Positions 3,581 through 36,144 of a stretch of DNA of 64,000 nucleotides are shown here, in pieces. A program made the position numbers and the translations under genes. How positions within the stretch are numbered: the first letter of the stretch is position 1; each line of letters begins with the position of its first letter. The notes beneath the pieces are model-generated. The model was not told the origin of the DNA. It worked only from the letters and a program-made list of their open reading frames with translations, and made no database searches. This stretch comes from Blastocatellia bacterium (GTDB lineage: Bacteria > Acidobacteriota > Blastocatellia > UBA7656). Location of the stretch: positions 10,182 through 74,181 of the forward strand of contig DATNBZ010000069.1 of the NCBI GenBank assembly GCA_035607285.1, read 5' to 3'.

Positions 3581-3732
3581 GGGTTCAGGGTTCTGTTTGC
3601 GAGCTTTGCGGTCCTTTGCGAGCTTTGCGCTAAAGGAACCTGAAAATACATTAGCGCAAAGCTCGCCAAGGACCGCAAAGTTCGCCAAGGAGCGCACCCG
3701 TTCGCCAAGGACCGCAAAGCTCGCAGAGAATA
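3581..3732. repeat. Family-A heptamer palindrome (CTTTGCG-type arms), a terminator-like inverted repeat between convergent genes.
   Basis: Arms TGCGAGCTTTGCGGTCCTTTGCGAGCTTTGCGC and GCGCAAAGCTCGCCAAGGACCGCAAAG are reverse-complementary. Confidence 0.7.
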
Positions 3733-3754
3733 CCTTGAACGCGGAAACCGCCAC

Positions 3755-4210
3755 TCACTTGTCGAGCGGGACGCTGACCACCGGCGTGTCCCAGTGCCCA
3801 AGCAGAATCTCGAACCTCCGCTGCTCTTCGCGTTTGTAAGTCTCCTGATCCGGATACAGCTTTTTGATGATCGGCTCTTCGCTCGCCTGGTCCGATGCCG
3901 CAGCCATATTCCTGAAGACTATCGTCACGCGATAATCCCAGCGCCCTTCTTCCGTCGCGTGATAACGCGGCTTCACGCAGGTTACGCTGAGTATCCGCCC
4001 CGTCTCCATCTGTTTCTTGAGTATCGGGTAGTGGTTCTTCAGGAATAGCCGTATGAACTCGTCGGCATATCCCCACCTGGCCTTGTAGTAGTAGTCCGCG
4101 GCGAACGGTTCGTCCACGGTTTTTGTCTGGCTGTTCACTGTTCCCCCGGCGCACACAAGAACGAGCCCGATCACAATAACCGCCATCGCGTTGCTAAGTC
4201 TGTGAGTCAT
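3755..4210 (-). CDS. Secreted hypothetical protein with a signal peptide, about 18 nt downstream of the second kinase gene.
   Basis: 151-aa ORF with hydrophobic N-terminus MAVIVIGLVLVCAGG and GGAGGA upstream of the ATG. Confidence 0.55.
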   Translation of the reverse strand: MTHRLSNAMAVIVIGLVLVCAGGTVNSQTKTVDEPFAADYYYKARWGYADEFIRLFLKNHYPILKKQMETGRILSVTCVKPRYHATEEGRWDYRVTIVFRNMAAASDQASEEPIIKKLYPDQETYKREEQRRFEILLGHWDTPVVSVPLDK

Positions 4211-4228
4211 GCATTCCTCCAGTGAGCG

Positions 4229-7200
4229 TTATCTGAAATCACTTATCAGGACTACGTCCGAAGTCTGAGCGCCACGCGCACATGCGAGCCGGCCATCACG
4301 AGACCAGTCCCAGGAAAACATTAGATCAGATTTGAAGTTGGTTAACTGTACCGGTGTGCCGCCCGCCAGCGGCTGGCCCCAAAGGTTTGAGACTCCCTGG
4401 TGAGTGTCGATGTAAGTCAAATACCGTCCGTCAGCAGTCCATCGAAGCTCGCGCCATGCGTTGATGGTCATGGTGTCGAAGACATGAGCCGGTTTCCCAT
4501 CTTCAAAGGAGAGGGCTGCGATGCGCAGTTGCCAGTCCGAACCCGGGGGTATGAAGTTACATGCGATCAGCTTTCCGTCAGGCGAAACGGAAGGCCGTTG
4601 CACCACGTCGTTCGCGCTGGTCACCTGGACCGGGACGCCGCCCTCGATAGGCGTCTTCCACAAAAGATGATTTCCGCCGGACTCCAACTGGAAGATCACC
4701 CACTTACCATCAGCGGAGCAGCTTGGAAACCAGCCTCCGTCAAAGTTCACTTGTGTAGGATTGTTTCCATCCGGGTCGATTCTCCAAATGTCGCTTCTGC
4801 CGGCTCGGTCGGAACCAAAGACGATGTAGCGGCCATCAGGCGAGACAGACGGATTGACGTTAGAGCCGGCGTCTGAAGTCAGTTGTTTTTGAGCAGTCCC
4901 GTCCGGGTTCATTATCCACAAGTCGAGCCGGCCGCTTGCCAGCGAGTGATACACGATCCTGCCGTCGGGCGTCCAACAAACGCCTCCCCCGTTATCCGCT
5001 CGGCCGGCGCCGGTTGGATTGTGCACGAACACACCCGCTCCGTATCTCCCGCCCCCGGACGTAATTTGTTTTGCACGAACGGCATCACCGCCGGGCGCAA
5101 CCCAGATGTTTGACACTTGATCGCTCTGCACGGTAACCAGGGCCTTTGAATCGGCGGTGAGGCTTATGTTGTTATAACCGTTCAGGTCGTTTGTAATCCT
5201 CCGCGCCTCACCGCTCGGATAAGCGAGGTGCCAGATCTGCGGCTGGCTTGAAGCTTTGTCTGACCCGGGAACCAGCAAACCGTTGCCATCCGGCAGCCAG
5301 GCGATTCGTCCGACGTTAAACCATTTCTGAGACTTGATCGGTTTCTCGGCCCCGCCCGATGTGGGAGCTTCTACGATGCTGAAACTGCCGTCCTGGAAGT
5401 TCTGAACGGTGAAAGCGATCACGCGGCCGTCAGGCGACCACGCCGAATCGTAAATGATCTCGGGCGTCCAACGCGAAGTAATCTTTCTTTCGCTGCTTCC
5501 GTCGGAGTTCATGACTAAGAGCAACTTCTCCGAGCGAGGCCCCTCTCCCCGGCCGGGTCTCCATCGAGCGAAAGCGATCTGCTTGCCGTCAGGAGAAAAC
5601 GTGAGACCGCCGTGCACTCTTTCTGTGATCTTCTTTGGGGCGCCGCCCAGCACCGGCATTTGATAAAGCGTGCTGTCCGGGAGACCTTCCTCTTGTTTGA
5701 CGTAGTAGACGTAATTCCCGTCGGGCGAAAAGATCAGCCCGTTGTATTGCGCGCCGCTGGCCGGTGCTATCAACACGCTGCTTGAAGTGGCGACCTGGCG
5801 CATCCAGATGTTCTGACCGGCTGCATCATTCATCACGAACGCCACGTATTTGCCGTCGGGCGATATTGCGGCTTCGGTGACACGGCCGGTCGTGGTGAGC
5901 CTGGCTACATTCATCGTTTGAAACGGCGCGGCGAGCTTATCCTGGCCAACAAATCGGTACAAACCATAGCCCACCGCGCCGATTAGAAGAATCACCGTTA
6001 ACAGCGCAATGGCCGCGCCGGTTTTGTGACGCTTGATTTCACTCAGGATTATCTCGGCGCTTGACGTAGTCCTGGGCGCCGGGCTGCCGGCGGTGTCCAG
6101 TGCAGGCGTTCCGCCGGTTCGAGCCGCAGCTTGCCGGCCCTGGGTACCTGCGCCGCGAGCATCGCCGGCGGTGGAATGCGCTGAAGGCCTGAGCTTTGAT
6201 TCGATCTCCAGTTCCTGCTTGAGGCTGCGCAGGTCGACCATGAAGTCGCGAACGCTTTGGTAGCGTTCCTCTCTGTCCTTCCGCAGGGCCTTGCTGACGA
6301 TTCGCTGAAGCTCAGCCGGAACGCGCTCAACATATCGCTCCAACTGCTCGGGCTCCGTCTTGAGTATCGAAGCGATAACGTCGCTTGTGGTCTCGCCCTG
6401 AAACGGCAGATGGCCCGTGACCATTTCGTAGAGCACCACGCCGAGACTGAAGATGTCTGTCCTCCCATCGACCGGGTGGCCGCGCGCCTGTTCGGGCGAC
6501 ATGTAATAAGCCGTACCGACGATCGTGCCTGGATCGGTCTGCAGCTTCATCACCGTCAGCGCCGTCTCGCTTGCGGGCGTTCGACTCTCCGTAAGCTTGG
6601 CCAGTCCGAAATCCAACACCTTCACGTAACGGTCGGGCCGCAGCATGATGTTTTCCGGTTTTATGTCCCGGTGAACTATCCCGGCGGCGTGCGCTGCCGC
6701 CAGCGCGCTCGAGGCCTGGGCGCATGCGTCGAGCACCTCGACGAGGCTCGAGCTTCGGCGCCGCATCAACGAGCGAAGCGTTTCGCCTTCGACGTATTCG
6801 GTGGCGATGAAGTGGATGCCGTCTATCTCTCCGACATCGAAAATGGTGAGAATGTTTGGATGATTCAATGCTGAAGCCGAGCGCGCCTCCATCTCGAATC
6901 GGCGCAGCCTGTCCGGGTCGCGGGTGTAAAAAGCCGGGAGCAGCTTGAGCGCGACGCGACGACCCAACCGGCGGTCCTGGGCGAGGTAGACTTCGCCCAT
7001 CCCTCCCACTCCGAGCACCTCGGTAATCTTGTAAGCCCCAAGCTCTCTTCCTATAAGAGATTCGCTCTCGCCATTGATCACAAGCTCGGCGGCCGCTTCG
7101 AAGACGGGCGCCTCGATGAAGCTGCCGGCTTTATCGTGAGAGTCGATCAACGCCTCGACTTCGCGGCGCAACGAACGATCTCCCTTGCATGCCTCATCGA

Positions 7201-7282
7201 GAAACGCCGCGCGCTCCGCCTGGCCGCGATCGAGCGCAGCCTGAAAAATGCCGTCGATTTGTTTCCAGCGTTCGGCCTTCAA
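4229..7282 (-). CDS. Ser/Thr protein kinase with C-terminal TolB/WD40-like beta-propeller repeats (paralog 2).
   Basis: 1017 aa. Hanks kinase motifs are present (GVGGMGEVYLA, VALKLL, HRDIKPENIM, DFGLAK, SPEQ), followed by a transmembrane helix and repeated SPDG/TPDG propeller blades. Confidence 0.9.
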   Translation of the reverse strand: MKAERWKQIDGIFQAALDRGQAERAAFLDEACKGDRSLRREVEALIDSHDKAGSFIEAPVFEAAAELVINGESESLIGRELGAYKITEVLGVGGMGEVYLAQDRRLGRRVALKLLPAFYTRDPDRLRRFEMEARSASALNHPNILTIFDVGEIDGIHFIATEYVEGETLRSLMRRRSSSLVEVLDACAQASSALAAAHAAGIVHRDIKPENIMLRPDRYVKVLDFGLAKLTESRTPASETALTVMKLQTDPGTIVGTAYYMSPEQARGHPVDGRTDIFSLGVVLYEMVTGHLPFQGETTSDVIASILKTEPEQLERYVERVPAELQRIVSKALRKDREERYQSVRDFMVDLRSLKQELEIESKLRPSAHSTAGDARGAGTQGRQAAARTGGTPALDTAGSPAPRTTSSAEIILSEIKRHKTGAAIALLTVILLIGAVGYGLYRFVGQDKLAAPFQTMNVARLTTTGRVTEAAISPDGKYVAFVMNDAAGQNIWMRQVATSSSVLIAPASGAQYNGLIFSPDGNYVYYVKQEEGLPDSTLYQMPVLGGAPKKITERVHGGLTFSPDGKQIAFARWRPGRGEGPRSEKLLLVMNSDGSSERKITSRWTPEIIYDSAWSPDGRVIAFTVQNFQDGSFSIVEAPTSGGAEKPIKSQKWFNVGRIAWLPDGNGLLVPGSDKASSQPQIWHLAYPSGEARRITNDLNGYNNISLTADSKALVTVQSDQVSNIWVAPGGDAVRAKQITSGGGRYGAGVFVHNPTGAGRADNGGGVCWTPDGRIVYHSLASGRLDLWIMNPDGTAQKQLTSDAGSNVNPSVSPDGRYIVFGSDRAGRSDIWRIDPDGNNPTQVNFDGGWFPSCSADGKWVIFQLESGGNHLLWKTPIEGGVPVQVTSANDVVQRPSVSPDGKLIACNFIPPGSDWQLRIAALSFEDGKPAHVFDTMTINAWRELRWTADGRYLTYIDTHQGVSNLWGQPLAGGTPVQLTNFKSDLMFSWDWSRDGRLACARGAQTSDVVLISDFR

Positions 7283-7304
7283 TGAACGTCCTTGACGCTA
7301 CCGA

Positions 7305-10300
7305 TTATCTGAAGCCGCCAATCAAGACCACATCGCTGGCGATGCTTCCGCGCGCCACAGCCAGTTGTTTGCCGTCACGCGACCAGGCGTGACTAAATAT
7401 TTGATCGGTCCTGAAGTTGGTCAACTGCTTCGGCGCGCCGCCGTCGATCGGATATGACCATATATTAGAAATGCTGTCGCGCAAGTCCGTGTATGTCAGC
7501 GCACGCCCGTCAGGCATCCAGTGAACCACTTGTTCAAGAGGCTGCGGCAGGTCAAAAACCTTTGTACGCTGCCCGCCTTCAACCGTTATAAGGGCGAATC
7601 TCTGACGCTTTGGCGTTGCCTGCTCATCCACGAATCTAAAGACAATCTGTTTTCCATCCGGAGATGGGGCGGGTCTGGCCGAAGAGTAGTCCGTGAGCCG
7701 AATTGGATTGCCGCCATCGATAGAGACCTTCCACAACTGGCTTACGCCCGTTTCGGTGCCTGAGTAAACCACCCATTGACCATCGGGGGTTATCTCCGCG
7801 TTCTGAGCGCTGGCTACGCCGGTCAATTGTTTCGGATTGCTGCCGTCCAGCTCCATTCTCCAAATACAGGAATTGCCTGTGCGATTCGAAGAAAAAACGA
7901 TATAGCGTCCGTCAGGGGAAACCGTTGGTCCAAGGCTCGCACGCTCATCAGCAGTCAATTGTTTCTGGCCTGTCCCATCCTTATTCACGATCCATATGTT
8001 CACGACGCTTCGCGTTCTGCTCGTGTAGATAATTCTGCCGTCAGGGGTCCAACATAAGCCGGACAAACCATCTGAGTTGTTCGATGTAATCTGGGTGGCG
8101 CGGCTTGCATCACCTGCGGGCGCTATCCATATGTTTGAGTTTTGCTGGGTCTGCACTGTGCCCAAAGCATTGGAGTCTGCGGTCAGGCTGATGCCGCCAT
8201 AATCATTCGTGTCATTTGTGATCCTTCGTACCTGGCCGCCGGGATAGGAAACATGCCAGATTTGCTGTGACGGATACGACTCTTTGTCGGAAGCGGCGAC
8301 GATCAAGCCGCTTCCATCCGAAAGCCATGCCAACTGACCGGCCGAACGCCACTGCTGATGGGTGATCTGCTGTTCGGTGTGATCTTTAATCCGGACCGTC
8401 ATCACATTCCAGTGGCTGCCGGAGGCGTCGCCGATTCTTAACGCATAGGCAATCCTCTCCCCATCGGGCGACCAGGATGGGCCCCAGGCTTTCTTTGATG
8501 TGGAATAGATGTCACGCTGGCTATGCGTAACCAGAGCTTGCTCTCCTGTGCCATCAACGTTCGAGGTCGCTACGACTCCTTCGTCGCGCTGCGGATAACC
8601 GCGCATGTAGACTAGTTGTTGGCCGTCGGGAGAAACACTGATGGCTCCATCCACATCCCTGGCCAGCATTTTTACCGAGCCGCCAAGGACCGGCACTCGA
8701 TACATCGCATTCTCGACCGATTCCCACCTTAGAAAGTAAATGTAATTCCCATCCGGAGAGAAGATCAGCGAGTTGTAGTCAACATGATCGGCGGGAACAA
8801 TCTCTGTATCGCTGCCCGTCGCAATATGCCTCAGCCAGAGGCTCTGCTGCCCTTTCCCTCCCAACGCGTGCGCCACATATTTCCCGTCTGGTGAGATCGC
8901 CGCACAACTCGCCTTTCCGGTTGTAGTAAGCCTGGTCAGTTTCATGCTGGCGAAGGACTCGGGCGATTGCGGTGCGATTTGTCGCTGGCTGAATAGCCTT
9001 GCTATTCCCATCCCAACTCCGGTAATCAAAATCGCCACGCCAATGAAAACCAGCGCCGCGCCTTTCTTGTGCCGCTTTATCTCGCTGAGGATGACCTCAG
9101 CGCTCGACGTCGTGAGCGCACCACCGTCTCCCGTCTTCTTCGGTGTTTGGCCGTCAGTATCGATGACCGCTTGCGTTCGAGTAGTCGTCCTGGAATCGTC
9201 GATATCCGGCGCTATGACTTGCGCACGCGCGGCTTGAAACTCGAGCTCCTGTTTTAGCCGCCGGAGATCAACCATCATGTCTCTTGCCGTCTGATAGCGG
9301 TCATCCCTGTCTTTCGTCAGCGCTTTTGTGACGATCCATTGCAGAGCCTCGGGAACATCATTCGAATAGCGCGCCAGCGGCGGCGGCTCCTTCGAAATTA
9401 TCAGGGCAATCAATTCGCCGGCAGTCTTGCCTTCAAACGGCGGGCGCGCCGCGATCATTTCGTAGAGTACCATTCCAAGACTGAAGAGATCGGTCCGCGA
9501 GTCGAGCGGCAACCCGCGGGCTTGCTCGGGCGACATATAATTCACTGTTCCCAGAACCGTACCCGGATCGGTATCGACCCGCGCGATGGTGGCCGCTTGA
9601 GTGTTGTCCGCGGCGCCGTGGCTCTCCGAAAGTTTCGCGAGCCCGAAGTCCAGGACCTTAACGAAACCATCGCGTCGCACCATTATGTTCTCCGGCTTTA
9701 TGTCGCGATGAATTATCCCGGCCTGATGCGCGGCCTCGAGCGCATTCGCCACCTGGATCGTTATCTCGAGAGACTCTTTCACGCTGAGGGTCGCGCTTGA
9801 TAGCCGCCGGCGAATTGTTTCCCCATCGATGTACTCCGTCGCCAGGAAACGGATTGAGTCTGCTTGTCCAATCTCGAAGATCGTGATGATGTTTGGATGA
9901 TTCAAGGCTGACGCGGCGCGCGCCTCTTGTTGAAATCTCCGAAGCCGCTGTTCATCCGCGGTGAAGTAATCCGGCAGGAGTTTCAGCGCCACGTTCCGGC
10001 CGAGACGGCGGTCCTGCGCGAGATAAACGTCACCCATCCCGCCCGCCCCGAGCAGTGCGGTGATCCTGTAAGGCCCAAGCTCTCTTCCGATCAGAATTCC
10101 ACCGTGAGCAGTTGCCAGGAGTTCAGGAGCCTGTGCGAAAACGGGAGACTCGATAAAGCTTCCGGCCTTGTCAGAAGAATCGATCAAGGCCTCTACTTCG
10201 CGGCGCAACGAATGATCTCCCTCGCATGCCTCATCGAGAAAAGCCTCGCGCTCCCGCGGGTCGCGTTCGATCGCGGCTTGAAACACCTTGTCGATTTGCT

Positions 10301-10319
10301 GATAGCGTTCAGGAGTCAT
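7305..10319 (-). CDS. Ser/Thr protein kinase with C-terminal TolB/WD40-like beta-propeller repeats (paralog 1).
   Basis: 1004 aa with the same architecture. The N-terminal 60 aa is nearly identical to paralog 2 (…REAFLDEACEGDHSLRREVEALIDSSDKAGSFIESPVF). Confidence 0.9.
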   Translation of the reverse strand: MTPERYQQIDKVFQAAIERDPREREAFLDEACEGDHSLRREVEALIDSSDKAGSFIESPVFAQAPELLATAHGGILIGRELGPYRITALLGAGGMGDVYLAQDRRLGRNVALKLLPDYFTADEQRLRRFQQEARAASALNHPNIITIFEIGQADSIRFLATEYIDGETIRRRLSSATLSVKESLEITIQVANALEAAHQAGIIHRDIKPENIMVRRDGFVKVLDFGLAKLSESHGAADNTQAATIARVDTDPGTVLGTVNYMSPEQARGLPLDSRTDLFSLGMVLYEMIAARPPFEGKTAGELIALIISKEPPPLARYSNDVPEALQWIVTKALTKDRDDRYQTARDMMVDLRRLKQELEFQAARAQVIAPDIDDSRTTTRTQAVIDTDGQTPKKTGDGGALTTSSAEVILSEIKRHKKGAALVFIGVAILITGVGMGIARLFSQRQIAPQSPESFASMKLTRLTTTGKASCAAISPDGKYVAHALGGKGQQSLWLRHIATGSDTEIVPADHVDYNSLIFSPDGNYIYFLRWESVENAMYRVPVLGGSVKMLARDVDGAISVSPDGQQLVYMRGYPQRDEGVVATSNVDGTGEQALVTHSQRDIYSTSKKAWGPSWSPDGERIAYALRIGDASGSHWNVMTVRIKDHTEQQITHQQWRSAGQLAWLSDGSGLIVAASDKESYPSQQIWHVSYPGGQVRRITNDTNDYGGISLTADSNALGTVQTQQNSNIWIAPAGDASRATQITSNNSDGLSGLCWTPDGRIIYTSRTRSVVNIWIVNKDGTGQKQLTADERASLGPTVSPDGRYIVFSSNRTGNSCIWRMELDGSNPKQLTGVASAQNAEITPDGQWVVYSGTETGVSQLWKVSIDGGNPIRLTDYSSARPAPSPDGKQIVFRFVDEQATPKRQRFALITVEGGQRTKVFDLPQPLEQVVHWMPDGRALTYTDLRDSISNIWSYPIDGGAPKQLTNFRTDQIFSHAWSRDGKQLAVARGSIASDVVLIGGFR

Positions 10320-10363
10320 GGAGCTGTGGTGATCACGATATCTGATCTATCTGCTGCCGGCGA

Positions 10364-10945
10364 TCAGGCTTCATCTGTCGCTCCTTCCTTAATCTCGCGA
10401 TAGAGCCATGCTTTTGCCGCTCGCCACTCTCGCTGGACCGTAGCAGGCGAAATAGCGAGAACCTCGGCGGTCTCTTCTATGTTCAGCCCGCCGATGTATC
10501 GCAGCTCGACGATTCGCGCCTTCCGCTCATCCATCGCTTCGAGGCTCGTCAGCGCATCGTCAAGCGCTACGAGATCGGCCGCCTGCTCTTGAGAGACAAT
10601 TGCCGCTTCGTCGAATGAAACCTTGACGGCTCGCCCGCCGCGCTTTGCGAAGTGGCGCTTTCGAGCATGCTCAACCAATATGCGGCGCATGGCCTGCGCA
10701 GCAACCGCGAAGAAATGTGCTCGGCTCTGCCAACGCATCTGGCTGTAATCCACCAGCCGCATGTAAGCTTCGTTGACCAGCGCCGAAGTTTGGAGCGTAT
10801 GGCCCGGCCGCTCCCGGCGCATGTAATAGGCGGCTAACCGGCGGAGTTCCTGGTACACGACGGGCACCAGCTTATCCAGCGCCGCCTTGTCGCCGTTGCC
10901 CCAATCCAGCAATAGTTGAGTAACTTGATTTTGTGAGAGTGTCAC
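10364..10945 (-). CDS. ECF-family RNA polymerase sigma factor (sigma-70 regions 2 and 4), first gene of the sigma-kinase-kinase operon.
   Basis: 193 aa with region-2-like [11 protein letters not shown] and a C-terminal region-4 helix-turn-helix ([26 protein letters not shown]). It lies 44 nt upstream of kinase 1. Confidence 0.8.
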
Positions 10946-10993
10946 GGCCGAATGCTCGTTTAGTCGACTGAAGAAGCCAGCTCAAACGCGCGG

Positions 10994-11019
10994 ATTATAC
11001 CACGCTCGGTTGCTGGCAA
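10994..11019 (-). promoter_or_regulatory. Candidate sigma-70 promoter with an extended -10 (TTGCCA-N14-TGgTATAAT) for the ECF sigma/kinase operon.
   Basis: On the minus strand, the sequence TTGCCAGCAACCGAGCGTGGTATAAT lies about 50 nt upstream of the sigma gene ATG. Confidence 0.35.
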
Positions 11020-11200
11020 GAACAAATGTAGGTCGTCCCTCCTCAGAAACCCTGCCGGTACTTTTTTGCATCAGGCCACGCGTATAAAGAAACTCTGTAA
11101 AGCTGCAATGTTCGTAGTCCGGCCTTCAGGCGGAAGTTCGTAATTCAACGTAAACGCATGAAAGCTCCCCAAACCTACGGTTGTGGTAAGCCCGCGTAGT

Positions 11201-11340
11201 GGGCACTGGAGTTTGGAGATTTACAACCACGAAGTGGGCGCTGGAGTTTGGAGATTTACAACCACGAAGTGGGCGCTGGAGTTTGGACATTTACAACCAC
11301 GAAGTGGGCGCTGGAGTTTGGAGATTTACAACCACGAAGT
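11201..11340. repeat. Perfect-phase tandem repeat: 4 copies of a 35-bp unit (GGGCGCTGGAGTTTGGAGATTTACAACCACGAAGT).
   Basis: Read directly. The four units differ at only two positions. Confidence 0.9.
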
Positions 11341-11660
11341 GGTTGCGACCCAAAGCCCAGGGTTGCGGTACTCCGCTACCCTGGGTGACGGTGCCGTGCC
11401 GAGACCACTCAACGGGGTGGCACCAACCCCAAAGGGGTTGCGGCGTGGCTCGCGAGGTAGATTAACGACGAATGCGGCGGGCAGTGGGTGATGATGCGAT
11501 GGCAGGCCGCAACCCCTTCAGGGTTGGGCCAAACGAATTGGGTAGTCTCGGCACTGCACGGTCACCCAGGGTAGCAGAGTACCGCTACCTGAGCTGTAAG
11601 ACGCATCCCCTTCGGGGAAATGTCCAACTCAATCCCTAAGCCTGCGGTTGAGGGATTGCA
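11341..11660. ncRNA. Candidate structured non-coding RNA or regulatory region with long-range complementary segments and a UUCG-type hairpin. Its strand and function are unknown.
   Basis: CCGTGCCGAGAC pairs with GTCTCGGCACTGCACGG; GGGTGACGGTGC pairs with GCACGGTCACCC; CCAGGGTTGCGGTACTCCGCTACCCTGG pairs with the later CCAGGGTAGCAGAGTACCGCTACCTG; CCCCTTCGGGG forms a tetraloop hairpin. No credible ORF is present. Confidence 0.35.
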
Positions 11661-11736
11661 GTCTTCCGTTGGTAGGAACTATTTCCCGGCGGCGGAAGCC
11701 ATTTCCCCGCGGCGGGAACCATTTTCCGGACGGTCC

Positions 11737-11860
11737 TTTTTACATTAGCCCAGGCGTTTACGCCTGGGTTCACAGGATTTTTACATTAGCCCAGGCGTTT
11801 ACGCCTGGGGTCACGGGATTTTTACATTAGCCCAGGCGTTTACGCCTGGGTTCACGGGAG
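11737..11860. repeat. Three tandem 41-bp units, each carrying the perfect hairpin CCCAGGCG-TTTA-CGCCTGGG. Two inverted-orientation copies lie at about 11966-11990 and 12032-12052, and a perfect palindrome CAAGCCCCGTTAACGGGGCTTG lies between them.
   Basis: Read directly. The units are nearly identical and the hairpin stem is 8 bp. Confidence 0.85.
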
Positions 11861-12325
11861 TTGTGAGTCTCATTTTCGAGCCCGATTTATCGGGCTTTGT
11901 CCACCGATCGAAGATGGCTAAAGCGTTTTTCAAGCCCCGTTAACGGGGCTTGAAGAATGTGGTAGCTCAGGATTCCCAGGCGTAAACACCTGGGCTACGG
12001 AAAAACGTGGCCGCTCAGGAGCCAAGGCGTAAACGCCTGGGTTAAGAAAAAAAGTTCTCCGTTGCCACGCCAGCGGTTGCTTCGTCGCATCGGCTCGTTA
12101 ATGCGCGCAAGACTACGCCGTGGGCGCCCCTCGTTACCATTGCCGTAGGCTTGCCAGGAGGGGCGGCCACGGAGGGCCGCCCCTAAATGTGTTTATCAAA
12201 ATGATTGTTCGCCAAAGTGATTTTTTTGGCTCGGCGTGATGGGATTCCCGATCGGTTCTCGCCATATGGTCCGAGGACAGAAGTCGAGGATCAATTCGAT
12301 TATCGAGACACGAAAGGAGAACACC

Positions 12326-12883
12326 ATGAAAAGAACACTTATGATAGCAGTCGCAATCGCCGGCGCAGTCTTCTGCGCATTTCAGTTGAGCACCCCGAGT
12401 GTATCAGCTCAGCAACAGACAGATGACAAGCTTCCGAGCAAGATCTGGAAGCGGGGCCTTGCCATCGCGCCGGTCGCCCTAAACCTCACCGGCAAAGACA
12501 AGGTCCTGGTTGGCGAAGGCAGTTACCTCGTCAACACTATGTGCGTAGACTGCCATACCTCCCCCGCATTCGCGGCGGGCGGCGATCCGTTCTCAGGTCA
12601 GCCTGAGAAGATCAATGCCGTAAACTACCTTGCAGGAGGCGAGCATTTCGGCCCGTTCACTTCGGCTAATATCACCCCCGATTCCAAAGGCCTACCCGCC
12701 GGGCTGACGCTCGATCAGTTCAAACAAATGATCCGAACCGGCTTCGACCAGGAGCGGCACCCTCAGTTCGGACCGTTCCTCCAGGTGATGCCGTGGCCGG
12801 CTCTTTCGAAGCTGACGGACGATGATCTCGAGGCGATCTACGAGTACCTTCGCGCCGTTCCACACGCTGAGCCCGCTCAGTAA
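12326..12883 (+). CDS. Secreted c-type cytochrome family protein (CxxCH).
   Basis: AAGGAGA ribosome-binding site, signal peptide MKRTLMIAVAIAGAVFCAF, and heme-binding motif MCVDCHTSP. The ORF-track start at 12236 appears to be an over-extension. Confidence 0.65.
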   Translation: MKRTLMIAVAIAGAVFCAFQLSTPSVSAQQQTDDKLPSKIWKRGLAIAPVALNLTGKDKVLVGEGSYLVNTMCVDCHTSPAFAAGGDPFSGQPEKINAVNYLAGGEHFGPFTSANITPDSKGLPAGLTLDQFKQMIRTGFDQERHPQFGPFLQVMPWPALSKLTDDDLEAIYEYLRAVPHAEPAQ

Positions 12884-12967
12884 GACGTGATGAGCAATTC
12901 TCATCAGACGCAGCCGCGACTGCGCTGCTTGATCTCAATTCAGACGACATAACAGAAAGGAGACGGT

Positions 12968-14134
12968 ATGACCAATAAGAGGTTTCCACTTTATTCACTC
13001 GCAGCGGCCCTGGTTCTCGCATTCACAAGCATAAGTGCCAGCGCCCAGTCTGCAACCACCTCAGTATTAACCGCAGGGCTGAAGACGCCTACCAGAATAA
13101 TTGTCAGCCCGAAAGGTAATCTGCTCGTCGCCGAAGCGGGAAACGGGCCGAACACCGGACGAATTTCAATCATCGACCCGGCAACGGGCAGTCGTCGAAC
13201 CCTGGTAGACGGATTGCCGTCCGGGTTTGCTCCTCCGGAGGGCGACGCGTCGGGACCTTCGGGGCTGGAGATGCGCGGGCGCACTCTGTACGTGGTTATC
13301 GGAGCGGGCGATGGAACGATGAATGGACCGGTGCCCGGAACCGAACTGCCAAACCCCAACCCGTCGTCGCCCTTCTTGAGCTCTGTGCTGTCGATTCGCC
13401 TGAGTGCACTCGCGGAGGACACGACGCAGGGCTTTACGATCGCTGCCGCCGATCAGGGGTCGTTGGGGTTTAAGAAGCTTTCGGACGGAGCCGGCAATGA
13501 ATTGGTCATCGAGTTGGTGACGAATTTCCGCAACTTCAGTGAAGAGCCCATTCCAGGGTTTCCTACAACCGTTCGGGCCTCGAATCCATTCGGCATAGCG
13601 CTTCGGGGAAACACTCTCTACGTCGTCGATGCGAGCCAGAACCTGGTCTGGGAAGTCGACAGCGATACGGGTGCGACTCGGCGCTTTGTAACCTTCGCGT
13701 CAAGACCAAACCCGTTGCCGTTCGGCCCGCCCTTCATAGATCCGGTGCCTGACAATGTTAGGCTGATGGGCAAGAGCCTGCTTGTGCCGTTATTGACCGG
13801 CTTTCCATTCCCTGGCGGCTCGGCAGAAGTGCGCAAGATCAGACTCGTCAATACCGCCAACGAGCCGTTCATCACCGGGCTTTCGTCGGCAATTGACGTG
13901 CTGCCTGCAAAGAACTCGAGCGGTCAGGATCAATTCTTTACGCTCGAATTCAGCACGGATATGCTGGCCAACGGACCCGGCCGATTGATGCGATTCGACG
14001 GCATCGGAGGATCTCGTGTAGTACTGGTGGACAACCTGATCTCGCCCACCGGCATGGCCCAGAATCCAACAACCGGAGACCTCTACATTGTAGAGACCTT
14101 CCCCGGGCTCATCCTTCGAGTAAAGACGCAGTAA
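12968..14134 (+). CDS. Secreted beta-propeller-like hypothetical protein.
   Basis: 388 aa with a signal peptide and repetitive Gly/Pro/Asn-rich blades. The product could not be assigned. Confidence 0.5.
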   Translation: MTNKRFPLYSLAAALVLAFTSISASAQSATTSVLTAGLKTPTRIIVSPKGNLLVAEAGNGPNTGRISIIDPATGSRRTLVDGLPSGFAPPEGDASGPSGLEMRGRTLYVVIGAGDGTMNGPVPGTELPNPNPSSPFLSSVLSIRLSALAEDTTQGFTIAAADQGSLGFKKLSDGAGNELVIELVTNFRNFSEEPIPGFPTTVRASNPFGIALRGNTLYVVDASQNLVWEVDSDTGATRRFVTFASRPNPLPFGPPFIDPVPDNVRLMGKSLLVPLLTGFPFPGGSAEVRKIRLVNTANEPFITGLSSAIDVLPAKNSSGQDQFFTLEFSTDMLANGPGRLMRFDGIGGSRVVLVDNLISPTGMAQNPTTGDLYIVETFPGLILRVKTQ

Positions 14135-14145: not shown

Positions 14146-14265
14146 CTTAACGCAAGGACGCAAAGTCGCAAAGCCGCAAAGCCGCGATAGGAAGAAGAAA
14201 AAAGACTTTGCGTCCTTGCGTCCTTGCGGCTTTGCGTTAAAGAGATCTGCTTGCGGCTTTGCGTT
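14146..14265. repeat. Family-A-related palindrome (CGCAAAG/CTTTGCG units), terminator-like between convergent genes.
   Basis: CGCAAGGACGCAAAGTCGCAAAGCCGCAAAGCCGCG is reverse-complementary to CTTTGCGTCCTTGCGTCCTTGCGGCTTTGCG. Confidence 0.7.
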
Positions 14266-15171: not shown

Positions 15172-15312
15172 CGGTTCAAGGTTCAGGGTTCAGTCTTCTT
15201 TGCATGCTTTGCGGTCCTTTGCGTCTTTGCGTTGAGAATTTTCCGCGCCGTTGAGAATTCTCGGTGGTTCTCAACGCAAAGACGCAAAGGACCGCAAAGC
15301 ACGCAAATAAGA
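15172..15312. repeat. Family-A palindrome in the argF-argB intergenic gap.
   Basis: TTTGCGGTCCTTTGCGTCTTTGCGTTGAGAAT is reverse-complementary to ATTCTCAACGCAAAGACGCAAAGGACCGCAAAG. Confidence 0.8.
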
Positions 15313-16337: not shown

Positions 16338-16434
16338 CTCTTTTGCGTTCTTTGCGGTCCTTTGCGTCTTTGCGTTGAGAATTCTCAACCAGGAATTCCT
16401 AACGCAAAGACGCAAAGGACCGCAAAGAACGCTA
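16338..16434. repeat. Family-A palindrome in the argD-argF intergenic gap.
   Basis: Same arms as at 15172-15312. Confidence 0.8.
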
Positions 16435-16444
16435 AGAAGCAACC

Positions 16445-17626: not shown

Positions 17627-17648
17627 CTCTATGTTACTCCGAAAAAGA

Positions 17649-17733: not shown

Positions 17734-17819
17734 ACACCGACCATGGCGAATGAACACGCATCCTAACAACTACCATCTTCATAGCACGCCATAGTATTAT
17801 CGAATCGCCGGAGGCATCT

Positions 17820-18555: not shown

Positions 18556-18606
18556 GCGTAGCGATGCTGCGATCGGTTGACTACCCATATATCGATCGCG
18601 ATCACG

Positions 18607-23261: not shown

Positions 23262-23310
23262 GGCCAGATTTTATGCGCATATCCGTATTTGAGATGCATA
23301 AAGTAGCACG
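23262..23310 (-). promoter_or_regulatory. Candidate ArgR operator/promoter region with repeated TTTATGCA and ATGCGCAT palindromic motifs upstream of argR.
   Basis: The motifs are read directly. No consensus ARG box for this lineage is known to me, so this is speculative. Confidence 0.2.
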
Positions 23311-23335: not shown

Positions 23336-23466
23336 ATTTGCGTGCTTGCGGGTCCTTGGCGTGCTTTGCGGTCCTTTGCGTGCTTGCGGGTCCTTGGCGT
23401 GCTTTGCGGTCCTTTGCGTCTTTGCGTTGAGTATTATTTCTCGCAAAGGGCCGCAAAGCACGCCAG
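23336..23466. repeat. Family-A repeat cluster (tandem GCGTGCTTGCGGGTCCTTGGCGTGCTTTGCGGTCCTTTGCG units plus an inverted arm).
   Basis: Read directly. Confidence 0.75.
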
Positions 23467-26147: not shown

Positions 26148-26933
26148 CTAAGCGATAGTTCCGCCGCCGTCTACAACTACCGTGTGACCGGTGATGTAGC
26201 CTGACGCCGGCGATGCAAGAAAGACTGCTACACCTTTAAGCTCGCCTTCGGCGCCGACGCGTCCCATCGGCACGCCGGCTTCTATCCCGGGTTGCGCCAC
26301 GGCGAGAAGTTTCTCAGTCATTCGCGAGGGGAAGAACCCGGGCGCTATCGCGTTCACGCGAACGCCGCGGCGCGCCCACTTGGCCGCGAACTCGCGGGTC
26401 ATCGCTATCAAGCCACCTTTTGCCGCGACGTATCCCACGATGTGCTGGCCGCTTTCCATCGAGCCTCGGAGCCCGGCGACCGAAGCCACATTGATGATGT
26501 TGCCGCTTCGGCGCTTGAGCATCTCGCGACCGACGCGTTGAGAAAACAGGAACGCGCCGGTCAAATTGGTCTGAAGCACCATATTCCACTTTTCAATCGC
26601 ATGCTCTTCGATGGGTTCCGCCCAGGTTACGCCTGCGTTGTTGACCAGAATGTCGATCCGGTCATACTCGGCAATAGTTTTGTCGACTGCGGCCTGGACA
26701 TCATGGACGTTTGAGACATCGCACAGCGTACCCGTGCAAGCGAAGCCGCGTGCGCGAAACTCCTCGACGGTAGGCGTCAACCACTGCTCGCGTCTGGCCA
26801 GAAGCATCAGCGAGGCGCCCGCTTCCGCTAGCCCCTCGGCCATTTCCTTGCCGAGTCCACGCGAGCCGCCGGTTACCAGTGCTACTTTACCCGAGAGGTC
26901 GAATAGCTCCTTCAACGCAGGCACGACCGTCAT
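26148..26933 (-). CDS. SDR-family oxidoreductase. The start is assigned at the internal Met after GGAGGAG.
   Basis: GKVALVTGGSRGLG cofactor motif, NNAG, and a catalytic YxxxK region. Confidence 0.8.
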   Translation of the reverse strand: MTVVPALKELFDLSGKVALVTGGSRGLGKEMAEGLAEAGASLMLLARREQWLTPTVEEFRARGFACTGTLCDVSNVHDVQAAVDKTIAEYDRIDILVNNAGVTWAEPIEEHAIEKWNMVLQTNLTGAFLFSQRVGREMLKRRSGNIINVASVAGLRGSMESGQHIVGYVAAKGGLIAMTREFAAKWARRGVRVNAIAPGFFPSRMTEKLLAVAQPGIEAGVPMGRVGAEGELKGVAVFLASPASGYITGHTVVVDGGGTIA

Positions 26934-27034
26934 CTCCTCCGTGTTGCTTGTGAATGTGGATGACGCTTTATACCGTAAGCGAGGTTGAGAAGCAACGCTT
27001 GGTAGTGTTCGGATTCTGCGTTGCTTAATAACCT

Positions 27035-27131
27035 CCGCGTGCTTTGCGACCTTCGCGTTGAGTATTGTGTCTTGCTCCTTCAACACCCAATACTCCGCGC
27101 AAAGGTCGCAAAGGACCGCAAAGCACGCGAA
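27035..27131. repeat. Family-A-related palindrome between the SDR gene and mazG.
   Basis: GCGTGCTTTGCGACCTTCGCGTTGAGTATTG is reverse-complementary to CAATACTCCGCGCAAAGGTCGCAAAGGACCGCAAAGCACGC. Confidence 0.75.
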
Positions 27132-27149
27132 GGATTGTATGCACAGCGG

Positions 27150-28032: not shown

Positions 28033-28170
28033 GAAGAGCAGGGGTCATTGGTCATTAGTCATTGGTCATTGGTCATTAGTCATTGGTCATATTGGTCATT
28101 AGTCTTTTGAGATCGCTCAGAGTGATATCGATCACCGAATGACAAATGACTAATGACCAATGACTACCTT
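28033..28170. repeat. Family-D palindrome built from a tandem TGGTCAT/TAGTCAT heptamer array and its reverse complement.
   Basis: GGTCATTAGTCATTGGTCATTGGTCATTAGTCATTGGTCAT ... ATGACAAATGACTAATGACCAATGACTA. Confidence 0.8.
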
Positions 28171-32026: not shown

Positions 32027-32106
32027 ATTGCGGATTGCGGATTGCGGATTGGATCAGCGATCTCCATTCGTGCGTAATCCTCAATCCGCAATCCGCAATC
32101 CGCAAT
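32027..32106. repeat. Family-F palindrome built from TTGCGGA heptamer repeats.
   Basis: GAATTGCGGATTGCGGATTGCGGATTGG ... CCTCAATCCGCAATCCGCAATCCGCAATC. Confidence 0.8.
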
Positions 32107-32116
32107 CGGAGGTATC

Positions 32117-34678: not shown

Positions 34679-35125
34679 ATGGGCGTGAACTGGGCGCGTC
34701 TGTCAGCAGAATCGCATTATCAGGTCGCTGTTGAGATAGAGCGAGCACTGCTCCAGGGTGACTTCGAAGAAGCGGAAGCCGGCATCAAGGAGTTGATTGA
34801 CGCGTTGGGCAGATCTGAAAAACGAGCGCTAAAAAGCCAGCTTGTTCGCCTGATGGCTCATGTCATCAAGTGGAAGACACAACGCGAGCGTCGGTCTTAT
34901 GGTTGGGTGGCGACAATCTGCAACACGAAGGAAGAGATTGCCGATATTCAGTCAGAGACACCCAGCTTGACGAGTGACGCTGTCCGGGGCTTATGGGAAG
35001 CGAGCTTCCGGGTTGCGACACGTGAAGCAGAAGGCGAGATGGATCAGAGATCCGAGGTCTCGTCGCTCTCGTGGCAAGAAGTGTTTGAAGATGAGTACGA
35101 AATGGACGGCGCGTCGCAGCAATGA
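34679..35125 (+). CDS. DUF29-domain protein inserted between the large and FAD subunits of the cox-like operon.
   Basis: LGRSEKRALKSQLVRLMAHVIKWKTQRERRSYGWVATI matches the DUF29 core. AAGGAG precedes the Met at 34679; the ORF-track start at 34604 is also possible. Confidence 0.55.
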   Translation: MGVNWARLSAESHYQVAVEIERALLQGDFEEAEAGIKELIDALGRSEKRALKSQLVRLMAHVIKWKTQRERRSYGWVATICNTKEEIADIQSETPSLTSDAVRGLWEASFRVATREAEGEMDQRSEVSSLSWQEVFEDEYEMDGASQQ

Positions 35126-35148
35126 CGCCATAGGAAACGAGGTAAGAA

Positions 35149-36015
35149 ATGATACCAACTCAGTTTGATTACCTGACTCCCAAGACGCTCGATGAAGCGA
35201 TCGGGCTGCTTGCTCAACATCCCGAAGAAGCCAAGCTGCTCGCCGGCGGGCACAGCCTGATTCCTGCGATGAAGCTTCGGCTTGCGACTCCGCAGATCCT
35301 CATCGACCTCGGCCGGATCAAGGACCTTTCATACATTCGCGAAGAGGGCGGACAGATTCGAATCGGCGCAATGACTACGCACTACAGGCTGGAAGCGTCC
35401 GACCGCCTGCGCGAGATATGCCCGTTGCTCCCCGAATGCGCCGCTCAAATTGGTGACGTTCAGGTACGAAACAAGGGAACGATTGGCGGAAGCCTCGCTC
35501 ATTCTGATCCGGCGGGCGATTGGCCCGCGGCAATCATCGCTCTTGACGCGGAGCTTGTTGCGGTAGGCGCCGGAGGCGAGCGCGTGATCAAGGCTGGCGA
35601 CTTCTTTGTCGACATGCTGACGACGGCTCTCGAAGCCGGCGAGATATTGCGCGAGATTCGGATCAACCCGTTAGCCGCGCGTTCCGGCCAGGCATATCTG
35701 AAAGTACCTCAGCCGGCTTCGGGGTTCGCGGTAGTCGGTGTAGCAGTCAATCTCACTAAAGATAACAACGGGGCCTGCGCTTCAGCCGCCGTTGGCATAA
35801 CCGGCGTCGCCTCGAAGGTCTATCGCGCAAGCGCCGTCGAAAAAGCGCTCAACGGAAGCGCCCTTGACGATCAAGCCATTGCCGCGGCGGCTTCGCATGC
35901 GACCGACGGTGTTTCGGTCAACGGCGATCTCTACGCGTCGGATGCTTATCGCAGTCACCTTGCCCAGGTTTACACTCGCCGCGCAATTGAAGCCGCAACC
36001 TCGCGAGCGAAATAG
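35149..36015 (+). CDS. FAD-binding medium subunit (CoxM-like).
   Basis: AGGHSL FAD-binding motif and CO dehydrogenase flavoprotein fold. Confidence 0.85.
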   Translation: MIPTQFDYLTPKTLDEAIGLLAQHPEEAKLLAGGHSLIPAMKLRLATPQILIDLGRIKDLSYIREEGGQIRIGAMTTHYRLEASDRLREICPLLPECAAQIGDVQVRNKGTIGGSLAHSDPAGDWPAAIIALDAELVAVGAGGERVIKAGDFFVDMLTTALEAGEILREIRINPLAARSGQAYLKVPQPASGFAVVGVAVNLTKDNNGACASAAVGITGVASKVYRASAVEKALNGSALDDQAIAAAASHATDGVSVNGDLYASDAYRSHLAQVYTRRAIEAATSRAK

Positions 36016-36144
36016 GTTCAGAGTGAGGATTCAGAGCTCTTTGCGTCTTTGCGGACCTTTGCGTCTTTGCGCGAAACGCCACGTTCGAACGCCATGTTTC
36101 ACGCAAGACGCCTGAACTCGGAACCCTGAACCACGAACCCTCTT

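Follow-up and report, generated by a model that had tools for sequence, protein, structure and literature searches.

Among the dispersed repeats described in bacteria, those closest to the elements analysed here are the REP, BIME and REPIN sequences of E. coli and Pseudomonas, which are short, high-copy intergenic palindromes that often lie within operons and near the upstream stop codon, lack a target-site duplication and occur as several families per genome. Their imperfect palindromes measure 20-40 bp and have stems of 8-15 bp. They lie mostly between convergent or co-directional genes, and in a REPtron cognate copies border the gene for a RAYT (Y1 transposase). On one side, REPs further end in a tetranucleotide tag, GTAG (or CGTC), that stays unpaired (PMC3733652), and they have been proposed to act as RNA hairpins (PMC3733652, PMC3116915). 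MITEs such as Correia/NEMIS, RUP, ERIC and Nezha are non-coding, hairpin-folding elements of about 100-190 nt that insert next to genes, and are recognized by terminal inverted repeats with a target-site duplication and by a conserved internal sequence. DNA uptake sequences are short motifs over-represented downstream of genes, and inverted pairs of them act as terminators in Neisseria and Haemophilus. Finally, the cyanobacterial STRR heptamers are long simple-sequence repeats with units of 5-11 nt (Mrazek 2007, as summarised in PMC4679880). The repeat that we call family A is best read as a tandem-unit variant of the known, REP- or MITE-like kinds of dispersed palindrome. It is probably a REPIN/MITE-like palindromic repeat, dispersed and non-autonomous in its host genome, a Blastocatellia (Acidobacteriota) genome recovered from a metagenome, and not an arginine-specific regulator.

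In the window, the whole 64,000-nt stretch of DNA that was analysed, family A is represented by eight intergenic elements across 3.6-36 kb, six of which border arginine genes (Table 1). The CTTTGCG core occurs 71 times against an expected 16.7 +/- 4.0, and triple heptamers at 1-3 nt spacing occur 13 times at eight loci, with an expectation of 0. Seven copies of the 32-mer arm quoted in an earlier, sequence-only reading of this DNA were found at two or fewer mismatches, again with an expectation of 0. Whole elements measure 82-160 nt, and the loop between the arms varies in sequence and, within the window, from 2 to 29 nt in length. Seven elements are long hairpins with arms of 36-45 nt and predicted RNA folding energies of -53 to -94 kcal/mol, in line with the very stable RNA hairpins expected in the sequence-only reading; the eighth, at 36.0 kb, is one-armed. 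An independent ENA assembly has identical copies over 16.3-32.7 kb, and elsewhere the window is matched at 100% by short Logan contigs, one covering 6.8-11.1 kb and the other 61.0-62.5 kb, so the family A copies are not assembly artefacts.

Table 1. Family A elements and related features in the window, with predicted RNA folding energies (MFE).
Feature	Position	Strand	MFE (kcal/mol)	Arms and units	Site
E1, family A palindrome, GAGCTTTGCG/GTCCTTTGCG variant	3580-3743	.	-93.9	Arms 38 nt, 92% complementary; right arm expanded (19-nt double unit, 3.6 copies); outer flanks GGTTCAGG/CCTTGAAC	Between cupin gene (2991-3560, +), itself a neighbour of argH, and 151-aa ORF (3755-4210, -); argH nearby
E2, family A palindrome	14146-14268	.	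-53.5	Units CTTTGCG/CCTTGCG, period 8	After argB, directly abutting its stop codon (TAA, 14264-14266); gap convergent with ScyE-like gene
E3, family A palindrome	15173-15312	.	-85.2	Arms 15194-15238 and 15268-15312, 45 nt, 96% complementary; adjoined by GGTTCAG x3 array (15173-15193)	argF'/argB gap
E4, family A palindrome	16342-16435	.	-73.9	Arms 43 nt, 93% complementary	Fills argD/argF' gap; argD stop 9 nt away, argF' start 18 nt away
E5, family A palindrome	20279-20384	.	-73.1	Arms 43 nt, 95% complementary; right arm with extra units	Between conserved unknown ORF (20392-21498, -) and argC
E6, family A element	23337-23465	.	-52.8	Left arm duplicated (38-nt unit, 2.4 copies); right arm short	Upstream of argR promoter/operator region
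E7, composite-subfamily member	27000-27135	.	-63.3	Family A arms 36 nt, 83% complementary	Between SDR gene and mazG
E8, hybrid element	36015-36141	.	-45.2 (left array largely unpaired)	Outer palindrome GGTTCAG/CTGAACC (36015-36035 and 36111-36141); interior arm of four CTTTGCG units (36039-36071), partner degenerate only	
32-mer, exact copies	Start 15208, 16351, 20288				
32-mer, near-exact copies	15267-15298, 16395-16426, 20326-20357, 23403-23434	-, -, -, +			
ARG-box-like putative operator TTTATGCAT...TGCATAA	23264-23306				
TTGGTCA array	28043-28166				

The sequence-only reading correctly described REP-like intergenic palindromes with tandem-unit arms inside a co-directional string of arg genes, and the placements of E1 to E6 relative to genes are as it gave them. 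Its description of the arms as concatenated CTTTGCG holds for the tandem arrangement; the arms are not pure heptamers but have a period of 8-10 nt, made up of the heptamer core and a spacer of 1-3 nt, and by TRF each arm holds 3.6-4.6 copies, at periods of 8-10 and 19 nt. It had also listed nine sites as the inverted 32-mer or close variants. Four of these carry that 32-mer and the others share the unit only; eight are real family A elements, while 36110-36130 is the CTGAACC arm of the outer palindrome of E8 and belongs to another family. The stretch 36036-36075, taken for an inverted repeat, does consist of family A units but forms a single four-unit arm without a matching partner, and the family A hairpin recognized at 27035-27131 is part of a longer, asymmetric composite element that starts with GGTAGTGTTCGGATTCTGCGTTGCTTAATAACCTCC at about 27000. 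The site of this composite element is intergenic, since SDR homology begins at residue 58 of the long ORF.

Family A shares with REP, BIME and REPIN sequences the general traits given above. However, its arms consist of 3-5 tandem units of 8-10 nt and reach 36-45 nt against stems of 8-15 bp, the whole element exceeds the 20-40 bp of a REP or REPIN palindrome, bare elements carry no GTAG/CGTC tag and, by crude gene calls, are not depleted in divergent gaps, and the RAYT found in a related genome goes with classical GTAG REPs of another family. Its likeness to MITEs lies in non-coding sequence, length, hairpin folding and insertion beside genes, but the 'terminal repeats' of bare family A are the whole element, its loop is conserved in neither length nor sequence, and it has neither a target-site duplication nor a known parent insertion sequence. 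One composite subfamily, of which E7 is a member, comes nearer to MITEs: it has terminal inverted repeats (GGTAGTGTTCGG), and the two copies of the composite carrier with both ends recovered show a target-site duplication of 9 bp. This subfamily begins with GTAG, and its loop, found in both orientations (10:13), is conserved, unlike elsewhere in family A. Inverted pairing of motifs is also a property of DNA uptake sequences; family A differs from these in its tandem reiteration and its many coexisting unit families, and nothing ties it to DNA uptake. As far as the summary of the STRR work goes, family A resembles those repeats in having tandem heptamer-type units in intergenic positions only, many units per genome and slippage-type changes in copy number, and the arms do repeat a 5-11-nt unit head to tail. 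It differs from STRRs, as summarised there, in that its short arrays, of 3-5 units, mostly serve as inverted arms of hairpins, that the host is an acidobacterium, and that whole arms, irregular spacers included, have been copied identically to more than 100 loci. An identical arm of 30-44 nt is present in 131 distinct copies, whereas repeats of local origin would share no long identical sequence across loci.

The wider distribution of family A is that of a dispersed repeat. We recovered the exact 30-nt arm from 108 metagenomic stretches, with 60 contigs in sample Ga0134124 and 14 in assembly WNFR01; these copy numbers and densities are taken from related populations and are lower bounds. The genes beside the dispersed copies are diverse and include those for prolyl-tRNA synthetase, PolX, galactokinase, a GMC oxidoreductase and MacB/FtsX permeases. 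At least two family A copies occur at 24 of 97 loci, and dense clusters are found away from the arg genes, with 4 copies in 10 kb at one locus and 5 copies in 16 kb in a permease (transporter) gene array. By crude gene calls, 110 of 114 copies are intergenic, the use of gap types tracks their availability (61/16/12 versus 286/90/82, chi-square p = 0.36) and divergent gaps are not depleted (p = 0.36). The median distance is 26 nt to a stop codon (15 nt or less in 19 of 57) and 110 nt to a start codon. Copies have sharp ends and unique flanks, with the consensus CTTY-GCGTG...CACGC-RAAG paired to its end and the flanks free of any conserved tag, and no target-site duplication was found at any offset or length among 77 full bare elements. 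A blastn search of a plasmid collection with the element consensus, Rfam at the gathering threshold over the whole window (0 matches) and a literature search for the repeat strings each returned no match. By these gene calls, family A is present in gaps of all orientations, about as often as each kind is available, and lies near stop codons.

We then find a class of repeats of which family A is one member. The window holds about 25 intergenic palindromes of at least 10 families, and family A is one of dozens of 'tandem-unit palindromes' in this genome, with arms of 3-5 tandem 8-10-nt units. Palindromic intergenic repeats, family A included, are a genome-wide and fast-changing class in this soil acidobacterium, and the turnover can be followed at the arg junctions of its relatives. 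Conservation at orthologous junctions, which the sequence-only reading had named as a check, is seen for family A at arg junctions within one sub-clade (clade 1; the window, L148, L126, L238 and L127) and ends there: in the sister clade (clade 2; L128 and L129) the hairpins at the arg junctions are built from other units, and the outgroups L239 and L240 have compact arg operons with gaps of 1-20 nt. The arg-locus copies are common to one sub-clade and were therefore inherited from its ancestor. E6 is absent from the orthologous site in L148, a presence/absence indel of 124 nt, the left arm of E4 is deleted in the same genome, E5 carries a 23-nt unit expansion in the window relative to L148, and the subtype at orthologous junctions is specific to each genome. 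Since their inheritance, then, the copies have changed through slippage of units, deletion of arms, gain or loss, and homogenisation within each genome. What looked like an inverted loop at argF'/argB, when the window was compared with L230, was set aside as ambiguous because the loop is itself quasi-palindromic.

It is conceivable, though we find it doubtful, that no transposition was involved and that the elements grew in situ by slippage, became palindromes through intrastrand template switching and were spread or homogenised by gene conversion between existing hairpins. The changes in unit number and the arm deletions between direct repeats are consistent with such a history, as are the genome-specific subtypes at orthologous junctions, the two orientations of the composite-subfamily loop and the same architecture in many other unit families. 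However, 131 copies with an identical arm, sharp ends and unique flanks point to copy-and-paste and not to independent growth, and E6 provides a clean pair of filled and empty sites.

Mobilisation by a RAYT, with family A as the cognate repeat of an unseen REPtron or of an Acidobacteria-type TIR-associated Y1 transposase, is rather unlikely. The elements form hairpins, are intergenic and high-copy, lack a target-site duplication and lie near gene 3' ends, the composite subfamily starts with GTAG, and Acidobacteria have Y1 transposases with long flanking inverted repeats that form repeat families (PMC3733652). Against this, bare elements lack the unpaired tag (GTAG or CGTC), and arms of 40-45 nt stand against REP stems of 8-15 bp. 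Our search for Y1 transposases, by a loose regex and by tblastn with Y1 query sequences, found one RAYT/Y1_Tnp gene in the fetched DNA (L175, 7899-8363; PF01797, E = 1.6e-27), and this gene is flanked by ACTCCGTAGGAGTC...CTATAG REPs of the GTAG family, not by family A. No further Y1 gene was found in about 1.1 Mb of DNA selected for family A, nor was a mobilising enzyme or transposase linked to family A in the fetched DNA. ORFs with family A on both sides, considered as candidate transposases, turned out to be ordinary genes (glyoxalase, DUF1990, 2-hydroxyacid dehydrogenase).

There is also a small chance, in our estimate, that tandem-unit palindromes form a class of their own among the dispersed repeats of bacteria, one not described before; they would then have to spread by a mechanism not yet known, or depend on a trans-acting factor that different phyla have in common. 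Such repeats would be polar arrays of 7-10-nt units, single or in inverted pairs, with a conserved 3' flank at the outer ends or by the loop, and would undergo within-genome homogenisation, loop flipping and mutual replacement at the same junctions without any RAYT. In a 596-Gb scan, a CTTTGCG(Y) array whose 5' flank is T-rich and whose 3' flank reads NGARA was found in more than 15 phyla among the matches listed, and this cross-phylum polar array, together with the flip-flop loops, offers leads on how such repeats spread.

When transcribed, the copies within the arg operon would fold into hairpins of -50 to -90 kcal/mol without U-tracts. By analogy with E. coli REPs, they may serve as generic barriers to 3' exonucleases, as partial terminators or as obstacles to translation termination. 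A terminator scan of 13.0-28.5 kb gave 15 terminator-like sites, none of which coincides with a family A hairpin, and no U-tract or T-run follows the family A arms, which do not have the form of intrinsic terminators, a G+C-rich hairpin with a U-tract behind it. The stability of the sense strand was weakly favoured in a sign test (39 versus 21) but not in a Wilcoxon test (p = 0.18), and G.U pairs showed no strand bias (115 versus 112). Pairing without strand asymmetry would also suit sites that act as DNA, either iteron-like units (direct, at 8-10-bp spacing) bound by a DNA-binding protein, of the nucleoid or of another kind, or structural elements that form cruciforms, and divergent (promoter) gaps that are not depleted and the NGARA 3' flank that polar arrays keep across phyla (among the matches listed) agree with this. 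We nonetheless regard such sites as very unlikely: no candidate protein was found, the units at the same junction are wholly different between sister genomes, and the elements are dispensable in close relatives. By eye, parS-like and sigma-54-like readings of the units fitted neither in spacing nor in sequence.

That the hairpins are arg-specific cis-regulators, selected to set differential argD/argF'/argB expression or to bind a dedicated regulator, is highly improbable and already largely refuted: arg genes adjoin six of the eight elements in the window, and the window, L148, L126 and L238 keep family A at several arg junctions, but arg genes are present on only two of the 108 exact-arm stretches (L148 and L230, both the orthologous cluster of a close relative), the sister clade fills these junctions with unrelated units and the outgroups have gaps of 1-20 nt, E6 is missing from L148 and the E4 hairpin is lost there, and a separate, conserved ARG-box-like operator exists. 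The sequence-only reading had found the concentration in one regulon unusual, a view that finds no support, given the exact arm on at least 106 stretches without arg genes, beside neighbours unrelated in function, the clusters of 3-5 copies at other loci and the arg junctions of relatives that hold other repeat families or no hairpin. Counting the arm near arg genes and elsewhere in metagenomic stretches, as that reading had suggested for the genome, found it dispersed, the generic distribution that it had itself named as speaking for repeats with no arg-specific role. ARG boxes are imperfect palindromes, rich in AT and about 18 bp long, that lie in promoter regions and are conserved among orthologous arg promoters. 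Family A was rejected as an ArgR operator, since it is rich in GC, measures 100 nt and is not kept at the argR promoter; the putative ARG-box-like operator (Table 1) is separate from it and conserved in most relatives examined. However, a local clustering effect at the arg cluster does exist, because all eight window copies come before the 16th of the 26 palindromes (post-hoc p = 0.004) and the exact-arm matches on the 243-kb contig WNFR01000008.1 are confined to the arg cluster. This effect counts against the explanation by a generic repeat, which leaves it unaccounted for.

With family A read as a dispersed repeat, an attractive but mistaken account of how the arginine operon is regulated falls away. 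This reading also draws attention to Blastocatellia genomes packed with unusual hairpin repeats, which have tandem-unit arms, many unit families and fast turnover at fixed operon junctions, and which could influence where mRNAs end in a soil phylum that has received little study. Such repeats break short-read assemblies and inflate predicted ORFs. Contigs were seen to end or to turn chimeric beside hairpin repeats, and one SDR gene is over-extended across one. Finally, a separate array in the window (Table 1) is built from TTGGTCA, which we take to be the STRR2 heptamer.

The palindromes of CTTTGCG units in the window (family A; elements E1-E8) are real. The 64-kb window, part of a metagenome-assembled Blastocatellia (Acidobacteriota) genome, holds 71 CTTTGCG heptamers against 16.7 ± 4.0 expected from dinucleotide-preserving shuffles; 13 CTTTGCG triplets spaced by 1-3 nt lie at eight loci, and the 32-mer arm quoted in the sequence-only reading occurs in 3 exact copies and in 4 with 1-2 mismatches (0 expected for both). 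That reading described the arms as concatenated heptamers, but the units are 8-10 nt apart, each being a core plus a 1-3 nt spacer. Four of the nine sites to which it assigned the quoted inverted repeat carry the 32-mer while the others do not; 36036-36075 is a one-armed array rather than a palindrome, and 36110-36130 is a CTGAACC arm of a different, outer palindrome rather than family A. Its prediction of very stable RNA hairpins is supported, with E1-E8 folding on the transcribed strand at -45 to -94 kcal/mol, or 3.6-14 SD below shuffled sequence. An independent ENA assembly agrees base for base with the family A copies at 16.3-32.7 kb, and two short Logan contigs (run SRR6185369) are a 100% match to the window at 6.8-11.1 kb and 61.0-62.5 kb.

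As also proposed, E2-E6 lie in gaps of the arg cluster, 5' of argR and after argB. This observation is real but an arginine-specific role is unsupported; rather, family A is a set of generic, labile REP/MITE-like hairpin repeats with an unusual tandem-unit build.

Genes (identified with NCBIfam and Pfam), family A elements (arms from inverted-repeat detection on the window) and other palindromes, in window coordinates
Feature	Position	Strand	Description
argH	1565-2956	+
cupin gene	2991-3560	+
argB	14264-15163	-
argF'	15317-16324	-	N-acetylornithine carbamoyltransferase
argD	16445-17626	-
glyoxalase-family gene	18607-19173	-
argC	19228-20259	-
conserved ORF	20392-21498	-	without family match
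argG	21515-22741	-
argR	22773-23258	-
E1 inverted repeat	3596-3688		arms 38 nt, 92% complementary; 3' of cupin gene that adjoins argH
E2	14146-14268		3' of argB
E3 inverted repeat	15194-15312		arms 45 nt, 96% complementary; argF'/argB gap
E4 inverted repeat	16342-16435		arms 43 nt, 93% complementary; argD/argF' gap
E5 inverted repeat	20279-20366		arms 43 nt, 95% complementary; gap between conserved ORF and argC
E6	23337-23465		5' of argR
E7 inverted repeat	27039-27116		arms 36 nt, 83% complementary; SDR/mazG gap, no relation to arginine
E8	36015-36141		3' of CO-dehydrogenase-type flavoprotein gene, no relation to arginine
tandem-unit palindrome	28043-28166		unit GGTCATT (also written TTGGTCA, the cyanobacterial STRR2 heptamer)
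tandem-unit palindrome	32027-32107		unit ATTGCGG
tandem-unit palindrome	48793-48924		units GTGAAAC/GTGATGC
tandem-unit palindrome	63755-63838		unit GTCCTCCGC
further intergenic palindromes	40868-40976, 17649-17735		arms of tandem 7-9-nt units
classical GTAG-tagged REPs	1259-1427, 41505-41588, 45089-45163, 50535-50695
perfect-arm palindromes	53606-53699, 56472-56573		arms 39 and 41 nt

A scan of JGI metagenome contigs with the exact 30-mer arm CTTTGCGGTCCTTTGCGTCTTTGCGTTGAG did not bear out the supposedly unusual concentration in the arginine regulon. The arm was found in 108 stretches (894 kb in total), on 60 contigs in the single sample Ga0134124 and 14 in assembly WNFR01 as well as in several other samples; 106 of the stretches are without arg genes. 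Only L148 and L230, adjacent on WNFR01000008.1, contain arg genes or overlap the window; they carry the arg cluster orthologous to the window's in a close relative (87-92% nucleotide identity). Other copies adjoin genes for prolyl-tRNA synthetase, PolX, a galactokinase-like kinase, a GMC oxidoreductase, a papain-like protease, a phosphodiesterase and MacB/FtsX permeases. Such a spread speaks against an arg-specific role by the test that the sequence-only reading itself had set, namely that a uniform distribution over convergent and tandem gene gaps would mean generic REP elements. Clustering like that in the arg cluster also occurs at other loci: 24 of 97 loci have at least two copies, with four in 10 kb on L221, three in 3 kb on L208 and, on contig Ga0134124_10000192, five within 16 kb in the gaps of a tandem permease gene array. 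Nearly all family A palindromes (110 of 114) are intergenic, and their numbers in co-directional, divergent and convergent gaps (61/16/12) are as expected from how common each gap type is (286/90/82; chi-square p = 0.36).

Nor are the elements conserved at orthologous arg junctions outside one sub-clade. We fetched eight related arg loci and built a tree from ArgG, ArgC, ArgD, ArgF' and ArgB. In clade 1 (window, L148/L230, L126, L238 and L127) the junctions hold family A. Clade 2 (L128 and L129) has other hairpins there, with units GGATTYTCACGGATC, GGTCCAA, CTGAGGA or GGTTCAG, a GTAG REP, or a 15-copy direct GTCCTTTGR array. The outgroups (L239 and L240) have compact operons, whose gaps span 1-20 nt and are all but free of hairpins, the sole one being a GGATGAA hairpin in L240. 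The hairpins are thus insertions into an ancestrally compact operon. The arg operon works without them, and its junctions are permissive slots taken by whichever repeat family is present in the lineage.

Within clade 1, copies in one genome are more alike than orthologues across genomes and bear genome-specific signatures (GTCCTTTGCGTCTTTGCGTTGAG in the window, GCGTCTTTGCGCGAAAC in L126 and GAGCTTTGCGTTRA in L238), a likeness due to concerted evolution or overwriting. In the closest relative, at 4.5% amino-acid distance from the window, E6 is absent, as a clean 124-nt presence/absence difference, and the E4 hairpin is lost through deletion of the left arm between direct units, with -14 kcal/mol left; E5 differs by a 23-nt unit expansion. 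The residual clustering of family A is best explained by shared ancestry and homogenisation: the arg-cluster copies would have been inherited in the sub-clade and then homogenised within each genome. Two ENA contigs of the same organism (L121 and L123) end inside argF' beside repeats. Their ~110 differences from the window all lie within 15533-16295. In L123 the first 320 nt derive from a different relative, one with a GGGCAGGGCTTGTCCCTGCCC palindrome between argD and argF'. The repeats seem to have led to a chimeric assembly here.

The consensus of 131 distinct copies is (C)CTTY-GCGTG-CTTTGCG-GTC-CTTTGCG-T-CTTTGCG-TTGAG-WATT, followed by a loop, variable in both length and sequence, and the mirror image. 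Conservation ends sharply 4-5 nt beyond GCGTG, where unique flanks begin, and bare elements have no target-site duplication at any offset. The sharp ends and identical irregular spacers indicate that copying, rather than independent slippage, links the copies. In a composite subfamily of 25 copies, including E7, the hairpins sit within asymmetric conserved flanks (left GGTAGTGTTCGGATTCTGCGTTGCTTAATAACCTCC, right GAAGGACTGACCACACGTTACAAGTCAGCAACCC). Two members, a 93-nt 'empty' carrier and a full copy, are bounded by terminal inverted repeats and a 9-bp target-site duplication, which makes the carrier a true MITE. Inside the fixed flanks the loop occurs in both orientations (10 vs 13), a result compatible with inversion between the arms as well as with insertion either way round. 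The longest SDR ORF (26148-27086; 312 aa) crosses E7; homology begins at residue 58 and relatives have 258 aa, so the repeat has probably given rise to a spurious N-terminal extension (26925-27086) in the annotation.

Among the genes called over the window, none has a transposase-type Pfam domain. A tblastn search with two Y1 transposase query sequences, followed by Pfam, revealed one genuine Y1 transposase (related contig L175, 7899-8363, PF01797, E = 1.6e-27). It is flanked by arrays of tandem GTAG REPs (ACTCCGTAGGAGTCTCCTGTCTATAG; CTCCGTAGGAGT...CTATAG; L175 7640-8480), making up a REPtron whose REP family also occurs at window 1259-1427. This REP family is not family A. ORFs bracketed by two family A copies were ordinary genes. 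Acidobacteria have Y1 transposases with long flanking inverted repeats forming repeat families (Di Nocera et al., PMC3733652), and on this precedent a dedicated enzyme for family A is possible.

Family A lies closer to stop codons (median 26 nt; at most 15 nt in 19 of 57) than to start codons (median 110 nt). Their position 0-25 nt 3' of stop codons resembles that of E. coli REPs, which shield upstream mRNA from 3' exonucleases and, at up to ~15 nt from the stop codon, can impede terminating ribosomes. By analogy, these hairpins may protect mRNA or hinder ribosomes. The hairpins are not followed by a U-tract, none of the 15 terminator-like sites in 13.0-28.5 kb overlaps them, and no Rfam match was found in the window. 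A strand test on co-directional gaps, with 60 palindromes of family A and 62 of other kinds, showed no clear difference in sense and antisense RNA energies (family A: sign 39 vs 21; Wilcoxon p = 0.18) or in G.U counts (family A: 115 vs 112), giving no sign of strand-specific RNA selection.

A looser pattern of three CTTTGCG cores with 1-3 nt spacers, searched in GTDB species-representative genomes (596 Gb), matched at least 120 stretches (L001-L120), with more than 15 phyla among the matches listed, including Acidobacteriota, Planctomycetota, Verrucomicrobiota, Chloroflexota, Cyanobacteria, Myxococcota, Proteobacteria, Bacteroidota, Nitrospirota and Chlamydiota. None of the arrays among the matches listed lies beside an arg gene, and an inverted partner is no more than 200 nt away for about half of the 154. 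These CTTTGCG-Y arrays have a polarity: the 5' flank is T-rich, the spacers are mostly one pyrimidine and the 3' flank is NGARA. They occur singly or as inverted pairs with the NGARA flank outermost or beside the loop. A factor or an ancestor in common could explain the arrays; equally, any of many possible units could be found to recur in 596 Gb.

A simple seed-and-cluster scan identified 25 palindromic elements in the window, 7 of them family A; E8 falls outside this count because it has one arm only. At least 20 heptamer-type units build such palindromes in ~1.08 Mb of related Blastocatellia DNA. The two perfect-arm palindromes share the start TTTGGAGTGCGGCGGC and flank a molybdopterin oxidoreductase-type gene. 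A 35-nt tandem repeat (11198-11342; 4.1 copies, 97% identity) and a 41-nt repeat (11737-12053; 3 copies, with inverted copies) share a 1.3-kb non-coding gap adjoining an ECF sigma factor gene. Tandem repeats of 21 nt (5.7 copies) and 33 nt (3 copies) at 60397-60635 look like coding repeats of ORF 60243-60800. The protein encoded at 36773-37900, with pentapeptide repeats and a C-terminal TIR domain, may be defence-related.

Just 5' of argR, at 23264-23306, lie AT-rich tandem palindromes, TTTATGCAT...TGCGCATAAAA (also given as TTTATGCAT...ATATGCGCATAAAA), which recur at this position in most relatives examined, including both hairpin-free outgroups. This pair is the likely ArgR operator, distinct from family A. 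The argG/argC interval holds an ORF of 362-377 aa in every related arg operon examined that covers it; orthologues of the window's ORF 20392-21498 were found in L126, L128, L129, L148, L238, L239 and L240. It has no sequence match in Pfam, NCBIfam or PDB and may encode a missing or non-orthologous enzyme of the arginine pathway. Between argC/glyoxalase and argD, 17627-18606 is a variable cargo slot with an HNH endonuclease gene and a 99-aa ORF on the opposite strand in the window, HicA-type toxin genes or other small ORFs in relatives, and nothing in the outgroups. Compared with L126, L128, L129 and L238, the window also has an insert of ~10 kb (4229-14134) between argB and the 151-aa ORF/cupin/argH block; the insert encodes an ECF sigma factor, two Ser/Thr kinases with PD40/Tricorn propellers and a ScyE-like protein.
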